DNA from: Tetramitus jugosus
Taxonomy: Eukaryota > Protista > Heterolobosea
Direction of reading: 5' to 3'
Length of the DNA: 64,000 bases
Assembly: GCA_937625935.1 (NCBI GenBank)
Contig: OW569356.1
Location: forward strand, 513,007 to 577,006
The position numbers and the translations under genes are program-made. The notes below the pieces were generated by a model that saw only the letters and a program-made list of their open reading frames with translations, had not been told where the DNA came from and searched no databases. Below are positions 52,547 to 64,000 of the stretch, one piece after another. Positions within the stretch are counted from its first letter, which is position 1. Every line of letters starts with the position of its first letter.

Positions 52547-53718
52547 GATTTGGTTTTGCTCAGTGCCAGCTCTGGCGGCTTCTTTGTCAATGGAAACAAC
52601 ATCAACAACTTCCCACGGATTTTTGAGCCAGATACTAATTTTTGCATAAGGCATGTCGCGCACGAGAGTCAAAAAAAAAGTTGATGTTTCCCATACAAAT
52701 TTTTTCCTCAGGATCAGATAGATCAATTGAGTAGATTTGATGTTGATCTCCCCTCACGATATCGTCAAGTTTTGGTTGAAATACTGCAACTTTCAAGTAA
52801 GCTCCTTTACCTTCGTTTGCCTTGTCATTGTATCCACTAAATGTAATCTCCATGAAAGTCTGATGCATGACAATAAACAAGACCGGTACTCTTCACCAGT
52901 TGAGTCAAGGACAACTGGTTCTACTTTGTTCCAACTTTTTTTTGCCATGTTCATTTTCAATCAGCATGTTCATCTACCAATAAACCTTATCCCACCACGA
53001 ACACGACCCCTTGAAGCCATTGTGAAAAGATTCACTCCACATCCATGAAGTAGTCCTAAGCGATAAGGAGTCATTCACTCGTTGTCTCAGTATTTAACTC
53101 ATGAACGAATTGTGAATGCTTGGTCAAGACATTGCTGTCGATTCCAACAAAAATGAGCGAACATCTACTCTTATTTCTACTCAAGCGACACTATTGGAAG
53201 AGACTGTTGCGATCAATACTAACGGCGCTGTTTTGTATGATTTGTAGTCTCGTCTTCGAAGTTTCGTACGGAAACAAATAAGTCCTGAGTGTACTCTACT
53301 CGAAGAATGAGTGTAGCTTGCTCTTCAATTTCACTGTGTAGGCTAGGTTCCAGTTTCTAATCTGCATTGCTTTTCATCTCTTTTTTGATCGGACATGAAT
53401 GAATTCAAACCTCTATTTTGTGTGCATTTGTAGTGGTATTGGTCTGGCAACCTATTCCGTGGCAGCTTTAGATGACAAATGTGGTCTCGTCATCTTCTGT
53501 CTGGATGAATTCAGAAAGGTGATTGTAAGACTGCGGACTGCTTCCTTTTTGTGAGAATCGCAAGAAGACTTACAAAATCCCCACTTGCAATTTGTTGAAT
53601 CATGTCAGCTGGTCGTGTTAATAATGAAGTTGTTTTGACTATCGGGTTCGATTCATGGTGATCGAGGATTTGAAACGGTCTACAGTGAACAAAAAAACCA
53701 AGACACCAACAAAAACGA

Positions 53719-55554
53719 ATGCTGTGTTCCTCGCGGGTCTTTTGTTCAAGGACGAATCGTCTCTTCATGAATCGCAGTTCTTTCAATCTCAAGACCCAAC
53801 AACGCAATCAATCTCTCGAGGTCATTCCAACAACCCAAGACTTTTTTCGTGAGCGAGAGCGTGGTGCCAAGTTTGTTGACAAAACCAAGATGATTGAAAG
53901 AATCATGAGACGAGAATTTGGTAAGAAGATTTTGTTTACAAGACCAAGAAAGATGGGAAAATCTTTGACAGTTGAACAAATGAAACTTATTGCCTTGGGA
54001 AAAAGAGAAGCATTTGGACCATTGGAGAACAATGAACAACAATTTGAGATTTACAACTCTGAGGATTTGTTCTCAAAATTGAAAAACACACCGGTACTAC
54101 ATTTAGATTTTTCTTCCGTGGATGTAAATGATATGGTTTTTGGAATCACAGATGAACTCAGGAACAACTTTGAGGAGAACAGATTGCAAGTTCCATCCGA
54201 TATTGAGAAAGAGTTTATCAAAATGAGCAGTCTTGTAGAGATGCTAAAATTGACTGTTCGCTACTTTGCTAGACACTCACCATCTGGACAAATTATCATT
54301 TTGATTGATGAATATGACAGTCCAATTACAAAAGCAATTGCTGAAAATCTGACAGATCAGGCCAATATTTCACTTGCAAAAAAGAATAGAGACTTGCTCA
54401 GAGCTTTCTTCTCTCCACTCAAGGCTCTTGGATCAATGATTCACTTGTTATTTATTACTGGTGTGACCAAGTTTTCATATACCAATCTTTTCTCATCGAT
54501 GAATGATCTTGACGATATGTCAACTGATACATCCTTGCACGCTCTGACAGGATATACATTAGACGAAGTAAGAAACACATACCCGAATGCATATGAGGAA
54601 CTTGAGCGAAAGTATTGTGCCAACTTGGATGAGAGAATTATCAATGAATATTATGGCTACAAATTCTGCACTGATGCAACAGAAGGGCTTTTGAATCCTT
54701 GGGATCTGAATCAACTTCTGAAGAAACACCAATTCGAAAATTACTGGGCAGCAAGAGGTAGAAGCATTCATCTATGGACCTTATTTGATCCAACAGTTCA
54801 CTCCATTCTTGAAATCATTGAACCGCAAGGAGTGGTGAACAAATTTACTCAGCCTGTAGACTTGAGTGAGTTGATCAAACCCTCAACACGAACAATTCAA
54901 AAGTTGTTTTATGAGACAGGATACTTGACGATCAAAGACAACAAACTAACAGTACCCAACAATTCTGTTCGAGAAACATTGATTAGTGATCTATCAGCAA
55001 GACTGGGGTTAGTTGATAACAATGATATTACAATCAAGATGAAAGAAGCACTGATAGAAGAAAATATGAAGAAATTATTTGAGCAACTTGGAAGATTGAT
55101 CAAGTCCTTTCCTCACCCAATGTTCCGGACAATACAAGGAGAGAAGCATGTTGGCAAGATTGAAGCTGTGTATGCAACAGCATTGTACGTATCAATGCTT
55201 CATTTGAAACGCTATTTCCCTCAGCTTACTTTTTTGGCAGAAGGATCCACGCTGGGCGGAACTCTGGATCTCTTCATCAAATTGAAGCGATCAATGCATA
55301 TTATTGAGTACAAATTTGTGCAGGACAAATCAAAGAAAGGTCTGTCAGCGTTCAATAATCAAGCTTTGGCACAGATGAAGCAGAAGAATTATGCGAATCA
55401 TCATTTGATCTTGCAATCCAGATCTGATTTGAAGTTGCATCTCACTGTTTTTGTTTTTGATATTGAAGACAGTAGATTTGGAATAGCGGAGACAATCGTG
55501 ACAGATGATAGTATAGGTGAGGTACATATTGAAGAATGCTCTCTTGAAGAATGA
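53719..55554 (+). CDS. Bacterial-type AAA-ATPase-like domain + C-terminal PD-(D/E)XK nuclease protein
   Basis: FVDKT, Walker A TRPRKMGKS, Walker B IILIDEYD, FITGVTKF, YYGYKF, NPWD, YW, GYLT and PN. Nuclease part GTLDL...IIEYK...ALAQMKQKNY. Intronless. Confidence 0.88.
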   Translation: MLCSSRVFCSRTNRLFMNRSSFNLKTQQRNQSLEVIPTTQDFFRERERGAKFVDKTKMIERIMRREFGKKILFTRPRKMGKSLTVEQMKLIALGKREAFGPLENNEQQFEIYNSEDLFSKLKNTPVLHLDFSSVDVNDMVFGITDELRNNFEENRLQVPSDIEKEFIKMSSLVEMLKLTVRYFARHSPSGQIIILIDEYDSPITKAIAENLTDQANISLAKKNRDLLRAFFSPLKALGSMIHLLFITGVTKFSYTNLFSSMNDLDDMSTDTSLHALTGYTLDEVRNTYPNAYEELERKYCANLDERIINEYYGYKFCTDATEGLLNPWDLNQLLKKHQFENYWAARGRSIHLWTLFDPTVHSILEIIEPQGVVNKFTQPVDLSELIKPSTRTIQKLFYETGYLTIKDNKLTVPNNSVRETLISDLSARLGLVDNNDITIKMKEALIEENMKKLFEQLGRLIKSFPHPMFRTIQGEKHVGKIEAVYATALYVSMLHLKRYFPQLTFLAEGSTLGGTLDLFIKLKRSMHIIEYKFVQDKSKKGLSAFNNQALAQMKQKNYANHHLILQSRSDLKLHLTVFVFDIEDSRFGIAETIVTDDSIGEVHIEECSLEE

Positions 55555-56140: not shown

Positions 56141-56978
56141 AAACATAAATCATGAGAAACGAACTGGTATTTCTTCTTGTTGCTCTTGCATCCATTCTAG
56201 TGTACTGTTCTTGTACTGCAGCACAAGTTGTGATCAATGAGGTGTGTTCATTCTTTCTAGTGTTATTCTTGCTGTTCCTACGATCCATTGATTTTTACTC
56301 ACGGTACGAGCATCATCCTATGCTATTGTTTTTTTTTCTATTCAGAAGAGCAAATAAATATACATTGACTAACACCAAAAATGGACCAAGAAATGGTCCA
56401 TTTGTTGCAAGAAAGCCAAATGTCACGGATGAATTTTCCGGTTGAGATGACCAAAGCATTATCAATAGAAGTGAGGCTTGGAGCTCTATGAGTAGAGTTA
56501 GTTCCGTTCCCGATTGGGCAACCTCATTTCGGCCCCAGGACAAGAGTTACCCATCAGATGTAATGGCATACGAAGAATCCGACTGCTTATAACTTTTTCC
56601 TTGTATGTAATCCTTTCACTCACCCACGAGGTATTGCTACTGTGTGATATGCACCACTCAACACTTTTTGTTCTGCCAAACTCTGCTTGGATAGTGTCAG
56701 TTTAAGATTGTTCCAGTACTTAATCTGTAATGGGAACCAATTCAATAAATCTCCTTGAGTAGAAATGGCAAGGCATAGAGCTTCCCAGAAGAAGAGCGAG
56801 CTATTGCATGATGTGTACAACTGACAGCAAGTATTTTCTCATTGTTGGCCAAAGAAGAAAAAGTGATTGATCTGGGATTTTTCGTTTTGTAGTACAAGAA
56901 TGAATCGAAATGGTTTTTTTGAAAGCAAGAACCAGAGATAGGGAAACCTAAAATCAAGCTTTTTTTTTTCACAAAAAC

Positions 56979-58874
56979 ATGAGTGATGATTCAGTAGGTG
57001 TTGTGACACGGGTGGAGTCTTCTTTCACAGAAAGAACTCTGAATTATTGGAACACTCTCAAACGTTTCAACAATTGTTCAAACATGGATTTTGAGTATTC
57101 AGCGAGTTGGAGATTATGGCACAGTTTCAACCAAATGGAACAACTGGAAATGATAAAAGAATTTCAATCAGCCTTGAATTTGCTTCCAGAGAAACATTCT
57201 GACATTACTTATCTTCTGCATTATGGTATCTTCAGAAGAACGTATCAAGATCAAACGAATGATTTGCCTATTTTGAAAGAGCTTCTGCGCCAATTATCAC
57301 AAAAAGCTCTTAAATCGTATGGAATCGTGTCAGATAAGAACATATTGGTGCTACTTTTGGATATTGAAGCACAAACTTTGCTTCACATGAAAAGCTATAT
57401 TGAATCATTGAATAGCTATTCACAAATTCTCCTATTGGACAGACAAATTGCATGGGTCTACAACAACAGAGGCTTAATTTATTTGTGCAGAGGTCATGTA
57501 TACAATGAGCTCAGAGAATACAAGAAAGCAATTACTGACTTCACCAAAGCAATAGAAATGGATACCACTGATGAAGATGTCTTTTTTAACAGAGGTTGTG
57601 CATACCTTGATTTGAAAGAATACAAGAAAGCAATATCAGACTTCACCAAGACTATTAAAATCAATGCTGCTCATGAAAGTGCATACTTTAACAGAGGTTG
57701 TGCATACGATGCGCGAAAAGAATACAAGAAAACAATATCAGACTTCACCAAGGCAATCGAAATCAATCCTGCTCATGATGGTTTCTACTACGACAGAGGC
57801 AAGATATGGTTTAAGCTGAAAGAACATGAGAAGGCAATATCAGACTTCAACAAATCAATAGAAATCAATCCTGTTCATGAAAAAGCCTACAACGAAAAGG
57901 GTTATGTATACCTTGATTTGAAAGAATACAAGAATGCAATATTAGAGTTCACCAAAGCAATCGAAATCAATCCTGCCGATGAATGTGCCTACTATGATAG
58001 AGGTTGGGCATACAATGAGCTGAAAGAATACGAGAAAGCATTATCAGACTTCAACAAATCAATAGAAATCAATCCTGTTCATGAGAATGTCTACAATGAT
58101 AGAGGTTGCACTTATCTTGATTTGAACGAATATAAGAAAGCAATATCAGACTTCACCAAGGCAATCGAAATCAATCCTGATGATGAAAGTACATACCATA
58201 ACAGAGGTTGCACTTATCTTGATTTGAAAGAATACAAGAAAGCAATATCAGACTTCAGCAAGACTATTAAAATCAATGCTGCTCATGAAAATGCCTACTT
58301 TAACAGAGGTTGTGCATACAATGAGCTGAAAGAATACAAGAAAGCAATATACGACTTCAGCAAGACTATTAACATCAATGCTGCTCATGAAAGTGCCTAC
58401 TACAACAGAGGTTATGTATACAATGAGCTCAAACAGCATAAGAAAGCAATATCAGACTTCACCAAGGCAATCGAAATCAATCCTGCTCATGATGGTGTCT
58501 ACTATGATAGAGGTTGTGCATACAATGAGCTGAAAGAATACGAGAAAGCAATATCAGACTTCACCAAGACTATTAACATCAATGCTGCTCATGAAAGTGC
58601 CTACTACAACAGAGGTTATGTATACAGTGAGCTCAAACAGCATAAGAATGCAATATCAGACTTCAGCAAGACAATCGAAATCAATCCTGCCGATGAAAGT
58701 GCCTACTACAACAGAGCTTGCGCATACCTTGATTTGAAAGAATACAAGAAAGCAATATCAGACTTCAACAAAGCCATAGGAATCAATCCTGATCTCGAAG
58801 AAGACTGTATGAGGTATGTGAGGATAATGTGTCCCACTGATCAGTTTACAGCTCCCTTGGAGCGCTGTGAGTGA
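56979..58874 (+). CDS. TPR-array protein with ~13 tandem, highly similar 34-aa TPRs
   Basis: Consensus ExAYYNRGxAYxxLKEYKKAISDFxKxIEINPxx, repeated in an intronless ORF. Confidence 0.93.
   Translation: MSDDSVGVVTRVESSFTERTLNYWNTLKRFNNCSNMDFEYSASWRLWHSFNQMEQLEMIKEFQSALNLLPEKHSDITYLLHYGIFRRTYQDQTNDLPILKELLRQLSQKALKSYGIVSDKNILVLLLDIEAQTLLHMKSYIESLNSYSQILLLDRQIAWVYNNRGLIYLCRGHVYNELREYKKAITDFTKAIEMDTTDEDVFFNRGCAYLDLKEYKKAISDFTKTIKINAAHESAYFNRGCAYDARKEYKKTISDFTKAIEINPAHDGFYYDRGKIWFKLKEHEKAISDFNKSIEINPVHEKAYNEKGYVYLDLKEYKNAILEFTKAIEINPADECAYYDRGWAYNELKEYEKALSDFNKSIEINPVHENVYNDRGCTYLDLNEYKKAISDFTKAIEINPDDESTYHNRGCTYLDLKEYKKAISDFSKTIKINAAHENAYFNRGCAYNELKEYKKAIYDFSKTININAAHESAYYNRGYVYNELKQHKKAISDFTKAIEINPAHDGVYYDRGCAYNELKEYEKAISDFTKTININAAHESAYYNRGYVYSELKQHKNAISDFSKTIEINPADESAYYNRACAYLDLKEYKKAISDFNKAIGINPDLEEDCMRYVRIMCPTDQFTAPLERCE
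57471..58796 (+). repeat. 102-bp tandem repeat array (13 units, first one partial) encoding the TPRs
   Basis: AAAGCAATATCAGACTTCA and AATCAATCCTG recur at 102-nt spacing. Unit 2 starts at 57573 and unit 13 ends at 58796. Confidence 0.92.
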
Positions 58875-59878
58875 CACAGCTATTCTTCATAAAAACATTG
58901 AAACGAGGACAAAGATTTCCCTGCCAGCATACCACAAAACACAATTAAATGGTGGAATTCATCTTCAATTGCGTGGATACAAAGTGCGTCGTGTGCAATG
59001 CTCGTTTCAGACAACTGAAACTGCTGGGAGAGTATGATCTAGCTGTCATGAGACCCATCTTCATCTGCCTACCTCCTATGTACATCAAAAGTGTACTATT
59101 GGAACACATGTTGGTGTGATAAACCGTTGTCAGTACTCCAGTGGATCGTGGAGCTTCTTCATCCCATTTATCATCCCAATCATCATCACCACCATCATCA
59201 TCACCTGTTGATTTCAAACCTGTGAAACAAAAATCCAATATGAATCATGTGATTACTTGCGTCAAATGAGTAGGTAGTAAAACTGCTGCTTCAATGCATT
59301 ATTATAAGCTTGCTTAGAAATTGGAACACTTCCGATCAAATGACAGGAATAATATTATATGCTCACTATGAACTCTAAAAACCACCCCAAGTGGTTGTGG
59401 CATAGTGGATCACTGGGGACCACAAAATTCGATTTCTTCATCATCCTCAACTCACAATCCATTCTGATAGAAATGAAAACTGCGTCACAGATGATACAGC
59501 TCTATTCTTCCCAGAAGCGCGATTAAGTCGTGCAACTTGTGGGCTCTTAGATACTGTTTGTTTCAGAGTAATGGTGACAGATCAACAACAGTGGGTGCAT
59601 CGCGATGCAGGCAACAGAACGAATCAACAACGAGTTTTTCGCACAATACATGTATTTCATTGTACATGTGCAAGCCATTGAAAGAGATATTTTGGTTGAA
59701 ATGTACTTGTTGCTAAATAGATAGATTTCTCCCCAGAGTTGTTGCTGATCAATTACTGTTCCATCTTCAACCTGGTTTGATGGATGATAATCATCTGGGA
59801 TTCCATGGACCGCCACACGATCAACTTTGACAGTAGGGAGATCTAGAAGCGTTTGGGTTGCAACCTCGAGTGTTGTCA

Positions 59879-59896
59879 GGGTTTGGGTTTGGGTTT
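59879..59896 (+). repeat. Interstitial telomeric repeat (GGGTTT)3, same orientation as the terminal telomere
   Basis: Exact GGGTTTGGGTTTGGGTTT. Partial units also occur at 59851-59859 and 60050-60070 (GTTGGGTTTC twice). Confidence 0.8.
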
Positions 59897-60081
59897 TAAC
59901 GTATACACTAACCAAAAGTACGTCAAGGAGTGTATTCATGCGTTACAATACCTGTTTTTGTATTCCTCATATCTTGAAATGTTCAACTTAACATTATGGT
60001 TGTTTTTTGACTTGTGGTTGTGGAACTATAGACGAAACATGTGATTTCCGTTGGGTTTCAGTTGGGTTTCGCATATCTGGT

Positions 60082-60404
60082 GGCCCGTAAACGGGCCGCA
60101 TATGACTGCTTTTTTACTATGGCCCGTAATAAAGGTCGATTTTTATTGAGAGAGTTTACGGGCCACCTAAAAAATGCTTTTACTATGACACGTGAACGGG
60201 CCACCTATTCTATCTAGCCCGTTTACGGGCCGCCTATTTATCAACTTTTCTCTAGCCCGTTCACGGGCGACCGAGACTTGATTTTTTATGGGCAAACAGT
60301 TGATTACTATGGCCCGTTCACGGGCGGCCCAAAAATCATTTTTACTAAGGCACGTTTACGGGCCCTTCTAAAATTTCATTTCTACCTAGGCCCGTTTACG
60401 GGCC
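60082..60404. repeat. Array of ~9 spaced imperfect 16-bp palindromes, consensus GGCCCGT(TT/AA/TC)ACGGGCC
   Basis: Copies start at 60082, 60121 (left half), 60149 (right half), 60187, 60216, 60254, 60311, 60349 and 60389. Spacers are AT-rich and several end in TTACTAT or CTA. Confidence 0.9.
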
Positions 60405-60414
60405 GCAAGATCTG

Positions 60415-60627
60415 GTTACACTGGTGGACCATAGTCTGCAGTAGTGGAAGGTGAAATATGATTGAACTGACCTACCGAGAGGTAGAATTGAGGGCCCGAT
60501 CCGGGAGCAGGGACAGTCCCCGCAATGCAATGAGCTTATGCGGTGTAAATCCCCGTTCAATGATTCGAAGCCAACCACTACGCGAAGAAGATGGTTCCAA
60601 GCGCTAAGTTAACTTGGCACGTGTAAC
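60415..60627 (+). ncRNA. Candidate structured RNA (nested multi-helix fold) upstream of ORF1
   Basis: Nested pairings GTTACAC/GTGTAAC, GGACCAT/ATGGTTC, GC(A)GTAGTGG/CCACTACGC and ATTGAAC/GTTCAAT, plus a CTACC-GAGA-GGTAG GNRA hairpin. Folded by eye only. Confidence 0.6.
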
Positions 60628-60727
60628 GAGTAGCTGCACAAATAAACAAAGTTTTTCCTTTCGAATCTCGGAGTTTTGATCAAAAACAAACGCAAACAAA
60701 ACAAATCACAAGGTTATCAACTACATC

Positions 60728-61680
60728 ATGTCTACAACTACAGAAACTAACTCAATTTCTTTTATTGTTTCTAATGATATAGAGAGAAGTTACCAACGAC
60801 TGGTAATAAAATTAGTTCACTTGTTATCATCTCCAAAGTTGGTAACAACTTCTTCATCGGTGAAGATAAAGAAGGAGTGAAGGAGGTGAGCAAGGAGATT
60901 GAAGACTTGAAGAAAAAATTGGAGGAAGAGAAGACTTCCAATAGTAGCCTTACAAGCCAACTAAGAGATGCTTTATTGAATCTCAACAACAAGAAGCAAG
61001 AGATTGAGAAGCTCTCTGAACTGTGTGAAGAATTGGAAATTGAAATTCCACCAAGTGAGTCTGCAAAGAAGGCTTTGAATTGGCTGGAGAGATCTCTGGT
61101 CATTGTGGAGACTGAGGAAAGGCCTCCCCATTCTCAAGAAACGGTTGGTCAGATGGCCAAAATGAGTGATCAGGAGTTTGAACGACTCCGAAAACACGTG
61201 TCCATCGTTGCCTGCATGAGGTATGCGATTCGTAAGAGGGAGACCGGAGAGGAGGGGGCGAATCTTTTCCGAACCATTAAGGGTGCGGATCCGATCGGAT
61301 CGGAATTGAAGAGTTTCCTAAGAGAGATCCGAGTCGGAGAGTTCTTGGTCCATTTAACCCTTGTCTTCAATGAGAGAAGTTCAAATTTGGAGACCACTTC
61401 CATTTTAAGAAGTCCAAAATTGATGGTAGAAAGTATGACCGCATTAGAAGCCTTCCCGTATTGGGTCATGTCCCAACATAGTCCTTCTACAATTGATGAT
61501 AACATCAAGAAGGAATTGTTGTCTCAGGATAGAATGCCTTCCAGAATTAGACAACTCCTTATCAAGATGAGAGAAAATGGAGGCGATAATGCCACGTCTC
61601 CTTCCACCTCTACCTCTGGTGGTTCCAAGAGACGAAGCTCGTCCAGCGGTCCCAACAAAAAAAAGAGTAAAACCAACTAA
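60728..61680 (+). CDS. Element ORF1: coiled-coil, gag-position protein with basic C-terminus; apparent frameshift near 60780
   Basis: The ATG at 60728 opens a frame that closes early, while the long frame is open from ~60778 to TAA 61680. Removing 2 nt from AGAGAGAAG joins them. Heptad region KEIEDLKKKLEEEK...; NLS-like end SKRR...PNKKKSKTN. Confidence 0.6.
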
Positions 61681-61685
61681 TCTCA

Positions 61686-63149
61686 ATGACAATAGAAGAA
61701 GAGTACTCCAATCAGTTAGAAAGAATAAAAAAGTCTCCTTCTCATCCTTTTGTTTCTAATGGTCTAATCATTGTTGAAGACTCTTTCGAACCACAGGAGG
61801 TTGATGGTCCAACGATGGAAGACATTGACAAGGAGCTTTCAATGTTAGCAGGAAAAACAGGAATAAAGAAGGTGACGGATGACCTATCGTTTAATCCTAT
61901 CAAGAGAATGGAGAAAACAGGTGGAGGAGAAGATTTTTGCCGTCAAGTGACCGTCAACATCGATGAGAACCAATCAATTGAGGATCAAATGATTCAATTG
62001 ATGAATCTATTAGAGTTATCTAAAGCTCCTGGTACAAAACTGGTTCAAGCCTATGCCTGGAGGAGTTGGATTAGCTGGCTAAAGGAGCAAGAAAACAAGC
62101 ACTCAGAGTTGACAACAGTTGACCCTTACAACCCAAACAAGTTTGTAGTTGGATTATATCTCTTGCATATGCGAGTGATACACAAATACAGTCATAGTAC
62201 TGTCGTCAACTGCTTCTGGAATCAACTATGTTCTGTATTGAAGGAGGAAAGAGGAATCGACTTGAAGAAAGAGATGAAGGATTTTATACATAAACTCTTC
62301 CGAGCTTTGATACGAAAGTACGGGAACTCGAAATTTAAAGTGTGCCCATTGCTCAACAATGATTTAGAGAAATGGCAGAAAAAATTGCACAAGAGAGACA
62401 ACAGAGAACTACAAATTAAGTTGAGAGCTCTCATAATGTTTGGTAGACATGTTGGATGGAGAGGAGACACTCTTTCCTATATGAAATTGAGACACATCAC
62501 CTTTTCAAGTTTGAAAAACGATGAACATTTGTATTTAGTTGCCCAGAATGTGGGTTATAAGAACAAAGGTGTTGGAGGACATGAGTTAAGAAACACTGTA
62601 TACGGCAGTAGTGACTTGAATCGATGTCCAGTGTTTGCTCTTCTTTGGTACCTCTTTCACATCAGGAAGGTTTTTGTTTCACCAACGTTAGAGGAAGTGA
62701 TCAATTCAGGTGATTATAGATTAGTTGAAGGAGCACAAGACGAATTTTTATTCACCCAATCGACTAGTGAACAACCAATGACATCCAAAGATATGTCAAA
62801 CTTGATGAAAAAAAGTTCTGCAGAGGAATTGAAATGCAGATACACTATGAGATCATTACGAAGTGGACATATCTGTCAAGCACTCCTAACTAGCATCTTG
62901 AGATACGGTATCATTAAGGACAGTGTAAGACAGGCAATCAAGAGACATGTGGGTTGGAACTCAGATGAATCAATCGACGCGTATGAACGAATGTCAATCT
63001 TCTGTTCTCAAAATGTCGCCAACCTACAAGATCTTCAGCAACACACAGATGCACAAGAACTGGTCAAATATTTCTGGAAAATGGATCAACCACAACCAAA
63101 CAGTCTCACACCAATCAGAACCACAATGAGGCAAGTGCGAAGATCCTCG
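61686..63149 (+). CDS. Tyrosine recombinase (DIRS/Crypton/Cre-like catalytic domain); no stop codon, runs into the telomere
   Basis: Manually translated 488 open codons from ATG 61686. Motifs: [18 protein letters not shown] (R259), YKNK (K292/K294), [19 protein letters not shown] (R389-x-x-R392) and [13 protein letters not shown] (W424, Y433). Confidence 0.85.
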
Positions 63150-64000
63150 GGGTGTGGGTTGGGTTTGGGTTTGGGTTTGGGTTTGGGTTTGGGTTTGGGT
63201 TTGGGTTTGGGTTTGGGTTTGGGTTTGGGTTTGGGTTTGGGTTTGGGTTTGGGTTTGGGTTTGGGTTTGGGTTTGGGTTTGGGTTTGGGTTTGGGTTTGG
63301 GTTTGGGTTTGGGTTTGGGTTTGGGTTTGGGTTTGGGTTTGGGTTTGGGTTTGGGTTTGGGTTTGGGTTTGGGTTTGGGTTTGGGTTTGGGTTTGGGTTT
63401 GGGTTTGGGTTTGGGTTTGGGTTTGGGTTTGGGTTTGGGTTTGGGTTTGGGTTTGGGTTTGGGTTTGGGTTTGGGTTTGGGTTTGGGTTTGGGTTTGGGT
63501 TTGGGTTTGGGTTTGGGTTTGGGTTTGGGTTTGGGTTTGGGTTTGGGTTTGGGTTTGGGTTTGGGTTTGGGTTTGGGTTTGGGTTTGGGTTTGGGTTTGG
63601 GTTTGGGTTTGGGTTTGGGTTTGGGTTTGGGTTTGGGTTTGGGTTTGGGTTTGGGTTTGGGTTTGGGTTTGGGTTTGGGTTTGGGTTTGGGTTTGGGTTT
63701 GGGTTTGGGTTTGGGTTTGGGTTTGGGTTTGGGTTTGGGTTTGGGTTTGGGTTTGGGTTTGGGTTTGGGTTTGGGTTTGGGTTTGGGTTTGGGTTTGGGT
63801 TTGGGTTTGGGTTTGGGTTTGGGTTTGGGTTTGGGTTTGGGTTTGGGTTTGGGTTTGGGTTTGGGTTTGGGTTTGGGTTTGGGTTTGGGTTTGGGTTTGG
63901 GTTTGGGTTTGGGTTTGGGTTTGGGTTTGGGTTTGGGTTTGGGTTTGGGTTTGGGTTTGGGTTTGGGTTTGGGTTTGGGTTTGGTTTGGGTTTGGTTTGG
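63149..64000 (+). repeat. Telomere (GGGTTT)n, ~140 units, G-rich strand 5'->3' toward the end
   Basis: Variant junction GGGGTGTGGGTT, then perfect GGGTTT units from 63161. Two GGTTT variants occur in the last ~20 nt. Confidence 0.97.

Follow-up and report, generated by a model that had tools for sequence, protein, structure and literature searches.

The 64,000-nucleotide (nt) stretch of Tetramitus jugosus DNA analysed here, hereafter the window, runs out into a telomere, and the last ~3.3 kb before it are arranged as a palindrome array, a folded segment, open reading frame 1 (ORF1) and a tyrosine recombinase (YR) gene, with both ORFs reading towards the telomere. We interpret this element (59897-63150), with a probability of about one half, as one copy, truncated on its 3' side and capped by the telomere, of a Crypton-like YR DNA element that is present in multiple copies, targets telomeres and has no reverse transcriptase (RT); its full unit is likely 4.0-4.7 kb long. 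Judged from its sequence, the element is a member of a multi-copy YR family and the present copy is defective. Such a family at amoeba telomeres is apparently undescribed, as a literature search, with most subscription papers and Repbase outside its coverage, turned up no account of YR elements associated with telomeres in Heterolobosea. For comparison, contigs of four of the 21 sequencing runs listed, X1, X3, X4 and X8, were used; X1 is possibly the source sample itself, and agreement with X1 is not independent support.

The original prediction, made from the letters of the window, had placed ~3.3 kb between a (GGGTTT)3 remnant and the telomere, and this holds: the three units at 59879-59896 are the sole run of at least two telomere units in the window apart from the terminal array, which comprises 142 copies of GGGTTT over ~850 bp. 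The features of the region are as follows, with the evidence in brackets.

58900-59878, no strand: multi-copy subtelomeric flank, outside the element (variant contigs in X1, X3 and X4; an X1 loose end behind 59862)
59879-59896, plus strand: (GGGTTT)3 telomere seed at the left junction, likely a remnant of the target array (sequence; X4 records 9 and 10)
59897-59915, plus strand: conserved left end of the element (depth step at ~59900; a diverged X1 contig; the tail of the homologous protein P0005, in translation)
60050-60069, plus strand: two internal telomere-like GTTGGGTTT 9-mer motifs (sequence; repeat-family listing)
60083-60403, no strand: array of six GCCCGT-NN-ACGGGC palindromes and ~3 degenerate or half units (pattern counts, shuffles, diverged copies)
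60438-60583, plus strand: predicted structured RNA (folding; compensatory changes in one X4 contig, read by eye)
60728-61680, plus strand: ORF1, ~300 codons (ORF list; profile and homolog searches)
61686-63150, plus strand: YR gene, cut at codon 488 (ORF list, homologs, conserved residues, structure model)
63150-64000, plus strand: terminal telomere array, at the start of which two variant units (GGGTGT, GGGTT) precede regular GGGTTT

Profile scans of the window YR against Pfam and NCBIfam gave no meaningful match, with PF00589 not matched and no match to DUF3504, GCR1_C or NDC10, so that the family has likely been overlooked in Naegleria and Willaertia genomes. A sequence search of 6950 candidates recovered seven homologous proteins of 60-73% identity, and one of 1.84 billion representatives yielded 53; searches against PDB sequences returned 0 matches and 1 spurious match. 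Of the 60 proteins fetched, 49 were aligned with the core of the window protein (ten short fragments and one fusion were left out). The catalytic residues are kept in most aligned rows, namely R259 in 38/39, K292 in 38/38, K294 in 37/38, R389 in 39/42, R392 in 36/38, W424 in 31/36 and Y433 in 32/33. They follow the pattern R...K...HxxR...H/W...Y, the His of HxxR being replaced by Arg (R389, in R389-S-L-R392), and with the residue roles assigned by motif the putative active site looks intact. The structure model reached a predicted local distance difference test (pLDDT) score of 87.8; an earlier model built on 7 sequences (pLDDT 43) was set aside. Its top PDB match was Cre (3crx; E 2.5e-8, template modelling (TM) score 0.61), with XerH and the Tn1549 integrase next, and its viral structure matches were mostly phage integrases at 8-15% identity. 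Predicted fold and motifs confirm the window protein as a member of the tyrosine recombinase superfamily, with a modelled core-binding and catalytic fold as in Cre/Xer, and the YR identity assigned in the original prediction is upheld by this Cre-like predicted fold and the conserved catalytic residues. A protelomerase identity was considered and rejected, protelomerases being absent among the 30 PDB structure matches listed.

A tree built from the 26 longest rows, all of this YR family, placed the window protein in a 7-row clade with support 100/100. Among 21 relatives scanned, NDC10_II appeared below cut-off in two (E 5e-3 and 2.6e-5), Phage_integrase below cut-off in three and a chromodomain in one. 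A C-terminal chromodomain (residues 849-902, E 4.7e-10) is carried by the distant family member P0034 (Naegleria gruberi NAEGRDRAFT_68309), hinting at possible chromatin-guided targeting in some members of the family. Organism names were attached to 5 of 10 relatives looked up, namely N. lovaniensis, N. gruberi and three Willaertia magna, all heterolobosean; searches for DNA around YR relatives found none in viral contigs, metagenome contigs or prokaryote genomes. At window positions 62188-62331, run X1 contains more than one diverged YR subfamily, indeed several, and one of them has the depth of the window's copy.

The YR frame reads straight into the telomere, six close YR homologs extend 220-299 residues beyond the window's cut (different homologs share 41-61% identity across the ~150 columns that follow), and contigs of two runs extend beyond 63150: X1 record 8, which matches the window exactly over 62595-63150, runs on for 778 nt without telomere, and X4 record 24 for 116 nt, likewise without telomere. 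These findings led to the conclusion that the window copy is truncated and telomere-capped, as the terminal truncation in the original prediction had implied. The missing C-terminal YR domain gave no Atlas match. The idea that the YR gene is split on purpose and made whole again when the element circularises was rejected, since the homologs continue ordinarily and the cuts fall at different places.

Copy number and a shared boundary had been set beforehand as the test that could refute the original prediction; multiple copies with a common left end beside GGGTTT were found in the X1, X3 and X4 data. Depth rises at ~59900 from 395 to 614 in X1 and from 35k to 135k in X3, depth being no measure of copy number, and a diverged X1 contig matches up to 59915 and then departs. 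The left end adjoins GGGTTT in at least two different contexts: in X4 record 9 it is preceded by at least three GGGTTT units, and in X4 record 10 it follows one unit that is itself preceded by an unrelated 51-nt flank not found in the window. Of the proposed targeting of TTTGGG arrays, the tie between left end and GGGTTT is thus borne out at the junctions, from which we infer that the repeats are probably targeted actively.

A common GGGTTT phase at the start of copies had also been named as a point to check; it is shared by the window and X4 records 9 and 10, but possibly not by P0005. Two of the 62 stored proteins, P0005 and P0006, contain WVWVW, which GGGTTT repeats give on translation, at residue 693 and residue 758, respectively, and by eye lack the hydrophobic C-terminal motif present in the other five close clusters. 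After the repeats, P0005 reads LTETLT against LTYTLT at the window's left end, one codon short. This tail suggests that the next copy may follow in tandem, an order for which P0005 is the sole witness. Furthermore, an X1 contig exits the YR at 62488, passes through 14 other letters ending in GGGTT and then maps to the telomere repeats at 59879. Healed cuts, including that of the window, number four and lie at four places, the G-rich strand following the sense strand in all of them. Both healed junctions seen at the DNA level (window 63150-63166; X1 62488) open with GGGTT before regular GGGTTT, with which P0005 and P0006 are compatible; the initial GGGTT is possibly a signature of telomerase start on broken ends in the host group.

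Allowing at most one mismatch, GCCCGT-NN-ACGGGC occurs six times in 60083-60403 and in 0 of 100 shuffles, which bears out the palindrome array of the original prediction. The units are spaced by ~38-67 bp, the degenerate or half units being interspersed; their arms are fixed, whereas the two central bases vary (AA, TT, TC), and units are kept in diverged copies that differ in unit number. Conserved arms around a variable 2-nt centre fit protein-dimer sites on double-stranded DNA, and the palindromes are likely candidates for such sites; hairpins were rejected because a 2-nt centre is too short. The palindrome core, CCG-N4-CGG, is of the type bound by Leu3, a Zn2Cys6 factor of yeast. In Naegleria, C6 fingers dominate among the transcription factors, according to the part of PMC3537659 at hand, and in view of both a host-factor promoter at the array would be plausible, with binding by ORF1 or YR as the alternative. 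At window position 60268, a class of copies in X1, X3 and X4 exits the array into one common other sequence (at least 492 nt in X4), which is either another subfamily's leader or a split-repeat junction.

Downstream of the array, the segment 60438-60590, with bounds chosen after a first fold, gave a folding z-score of -4.19 for the plus strand (0/200 shuffles) and of -3.58 for the minus strand. When fixed 200-nt windows are used, the segment scores just -2.0 and -1.7, weaker than two other such windows of the element, at 60700 (-3.4) and 61400 (-3.1), so that folding energy alone is not decisive for a structured RNA. In the predicted structure, a rod leads into a four-way junction that bears a GAGA tetraloop hairpin, and the closing helix pairs 60461-60467 with 60555-60561. 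The core at 60468-60513 is retained in a diverged relative, an X4 contig (ninth of 9 X4 records there, 8 being listed; two unassigned loose ends were ascribed to the ninth, and bin depths agree). Read by eye, the helix of this relative is ATCATA(G)/(C)TATGAT in place of the window's ATTGAAC/GTTCAAT: three pairs change on both sides, four counting a shared C, none is broken, and a GGGA/TCCC stem is retained around a shorter hairpin. We estimate the chance of three exact compensations at ~2%, or a few percent with register freedom, the covariation evidence being a single unreplicated X4 contig of depth ~3. A second variant is without the 5' strands of the outermost predicted stems, so the core alone is supported. 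The folded leader of the original prediction is therefore sustained in part, by the z-score of the chosen segment and the compensatory pairs, and is weak in fixed windows.

A search of Rfam with E up to 10 gave no ribozyme, riboswitch or group I match of note, the best scores being 7-18 bits against gathering values of 35-55. A lariat-capping ribozyme was likewise rejected: it had no Rfam match, and the segment is not one by that test, and the reminiscent helix, compared with the available part of PMC4167309, changes sequence in the relative. We propose that the folded segment acts in cis as the leader of a putative bicistronic ORF1-YR transcript. Both the palindrome array and the folded leader are genuine features, conserved in diverged copies; the combination had been flagged as unfamiliar from described YR elements, and our literature search likewise found no description of it for such elements.

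For ORF1, a coiled coil is predicted at the N terminus, and the tail is basic and rich in serine. Its first ATG (60728) lies in a frame stopping at 60880, and the 300-codon frame 60778-61680 is without ATG before 61153; the window copy is frameshifted at ~60780-60790, with the same letters in X1 contigs (record 5). No convincing intron candidate was found in the element, and an intron repairing ORF1 was rejected, none of the candidates listed having typical sites. No ORF1 homolog was found among 3022 candidates, Atlas scores were at most 0.82, and Pfam and NCBIfam returned coiled-coil noise alone, without a CCHC knuckle. By position ORF1 qualifies as a gag-like ORF upstream of the YR, since it ends 5 nt before the YR frame; a domain or knuckle was not seen in it. 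Of the compact cassette pointing to the chromosome end in the original prediction, the two telomere-ward ORFs stand, whereas the cassette is not intact, the YR being without stop codon and ORF1 frameshifted.

No RT motif was found on the sense strand or in any frame of 59897-63150, and the longest alternative frame spans 120 codons; on the same grounds a DIRS1-like retrotransposon was rejected. Among 19 homolog contigs, six measure 4033-4698 nt, approximately the sum of leader, ORF1 and YR (about 3.9-4.1 kb) and a tail of 0.1-0.6 kb, and contigs of 4.0-4.7 kb leave no room for a 2-3 kb RT. The choice offered by the original prediction, between a TATE/VIPER-like element that has lost its RT and an RT-less YR DNA element, is settled by proof for neither side, and these contig sizes favour the RT-less one. 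We nevertheless consider it possible, if rather unlikely, that the element is a TATE/VIPER-like YR retrotransposon (gag-like ORF1, YR, RT/RNase H, split direct repeats of the form A1 ... B1-A2-B2); loss of the distal end would have removed its RT half, and its leader would be a packaging or priming signal. In the accessible part of PMC6681497, TATE elements are described as tandem clusters in telomeric hexamers, with the order gag-like ORF, YR and RT, aligned YR lengths of 434-982 aa and a gag-like ORF without domain or CH box. The conserved RNA helix would suit such an element, and split-repeat junctions could account for the over-represented first ~370 bp with their common exit at 60268 in X1, X3 and X4, and for X4 record 10, in which unique DNA, one hexamer and the left end follow each other. 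Apart from the contig sizes, however, variants of the left region carry 15-21 differences from the window over 121-164 letters, whereas the repeats of most TATE copies are 96-100% alike (PMC6681497, same part), and 5/5 organism-named YR matches are heterolobosean. The homologs also yielded no YR-RT fusion, a weak point since TATE keeps YR and RT apart.

Several observations weigh against the RT-less, telomere-targeting element that we prefer. Of the 19 homolog contigs, 13 lie outside 4.0-4.7 kb, being shorter or much longer, and one of the six inside is a telomere-cut copy; a true right end, an empty site or a circle junction was not found among the sequences compared. In TATE order, an RT would fall downstream, exactly in the part lost from the window copy, and the conserved folded leader and bicistronic ORF1-YR layout would suit a retroelement better than a Crypton. 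Five distant YR relatives sit on contigs of 146-591 kb. By depth arithmetic, no X1 or X4 contig covers 63151-63170; as contigs drop rare variants, the window's junction at 63151 may be clone-specific, rare or an assembly patch. Since P0005 is one codon short at its junction, the insertion phase may not be fixed. Finally, the flank is a multi-copy subtelomeric block at the same depth as the window's copy (~170 in X1), so part of the copy number is passive subtelomere duplication.

This last point bears on an improbable alternative without targeting, in which subtelomeric blocks carried an ordinary YR element, or what is left of one, along with them, and the GGGTTT tracts would be scars left by repeated breaks and their healing. 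The multi-copy flank (58900-59878) is apparently itself cut at 59878: a paralogous X1 flank continues with other letters at the position of the window's GGGTTT, which places this cut before or at insertion. Every right junction observed is a random cut within the YR gene, and the long contigs of the distant relatives point the same way. Scars should, however, be random, whereas one and the same left end adjoins GGGTTT in the window as well as in two X4 contigs that differ in the number of repeats, and apparently also in P0005. An integrated piece of a nuclear plasmid or DNA virus, with the YR as integrase or amplifier and the palindromes as origin/partition sites bound by ORF1 (comparable to the repeats of the yeast 2-micron plasmid), would match the small size, the two ORFs, the iterated palindrome array of variable number and the Cre-like fold, but is very improbable, given that the depth of window-identical contigs equals flank depth in X1 (173 vs 166-180), which excludes a high-copy episome in that run, that no relative occurs in viral contigs, and that the element stretch holds no capsid, polymerase or helicase.

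For the preferred RT-less YR DNA element, the following mode of action can be envisaged. The palindrome array would bind a dimeric protein (host transcription factor, ORF1 or YR) and drive a transcript starting near the folded segment, which would act in cis on the bicistronic RNA, most likely in translation or processing control, and the YR would be translated by reinitiation 5 nt past ORF1. The recombinase would then excise a circle and recombine it with a GGGTTT unit near the telomere base, leaving 1-3 units on the inner side. Later breaks would erode the distal end, telomerase would cap the cut, and a new copy could land in the new repeats, giving the order cut copy, short telomere tract, next copy. 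A bolder extension, which we regard as doubtful, is a new kind of eukaryotic telomere parasite, an RT-less YR element that would depend on a structured RNA of its own for colonising telomere repeats (this RNA being a new ribozyme, an internal ribosome entry site, or a recruiter of telomerase or another RT in trans) and would drive insertion-breakage-healing cycles at heterolobosean chromosome ends. The YR is in any case a candidate recombinase that may recognise telomere repeats, and the family offers a new conserved RNA motif with covariation support from one contig as well as a testable cause of chromosome-end turnover in amoebae.

Three further observations concern the window itself. Position 60005 is G in all X1 and X4 contigs and in most X3 depth vs T in the window, likely an assembly error or a strain difference. 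A subtelomeric gene at 56952-58874 contains ~13 tandem 102-bp tetratricopeptide repeat (TPR) units. The ORF at 53689-55554 has an N-terminal P-loop and no real match in NCBIfam; it presumably resembles a bacterial-type family combining AAA-ATPase and PD-(D/E)XK nuclease.

Among known systems, the MoTeR elements of Magnaporthe are endonuclease-based retroelements without long terminal repeats and do not use a YR, and in DIRS1-like elements RT/RNase H lies between, or overlaps, gag and YR. According to the part of PMC7367193 at hand, MoTeR shares with the present element interstitial telomere tracts arising from insertion, truncation and healing, as well as unstable ends, and differs as a retrotransposon from a YR element. 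The DIRS1-like/PAT elements of Naegleria gruberi likewise encode a YR and come from the same host group, but they encode RT (PMC3266345, accessible part), whereas here the gap between ORF1 and YR is 5 nt and PF00589 is not matched.

Closer in kind are the Crypton and CryptonV elements (PMC3212892, PMC8869645 and PMC13465315, each in its available part), with which the window element shares presumably YR-driven movement, the apparent lack of RT, no terminal inverted repeat seen at the left end and a 6-bp unit at the junction. The two distant YR relatives with weak matches to NDC10_II, a Crypton-derived domain, add to this likeness. Circular movement via direct repeats of 4-6 bp has been proposed for Cryptons (PMC3212892), and microsatellites are the target of some CryptonV families (PMC8869645), as far as these parts go; our literature search found no report of a Crypton in Naegleria. 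The window element differs by its upstream ORF1 in bicistronic layout, its folded leader, its palindrome array and its telomere-repeat target, and has neither DUF3504 nor GCR1_C. In the cited literature at hand, telomere targeting is documented for retroelements (TATE, MoTeR), whereas RT-less YR transposons target microsatellites at most.

With TATE, a group of kinetoplastid VIPER-like YR retrotransposons, the window element has in common a YR element in telomeric hexamer arrays, an apparent tandem arrangement and a domain-less ORF1 before a long YR, whereas it has no RT/RNase H seen (likely absent) and belongs to another host group with another hexamer; the comparison is one of layout and is limited to the accessible part of PMC6681497, and no protein named as TATE stood among the YR matches. 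That part makes no mention of a palindrome array or a covarying RNA for TATE, both of which are features of the window element, and supplement file 2 of the same paper, as available, did not yield the TATE junction hexamer. In its working, the family resembles both Crypton and TATE, and we file it under neither.

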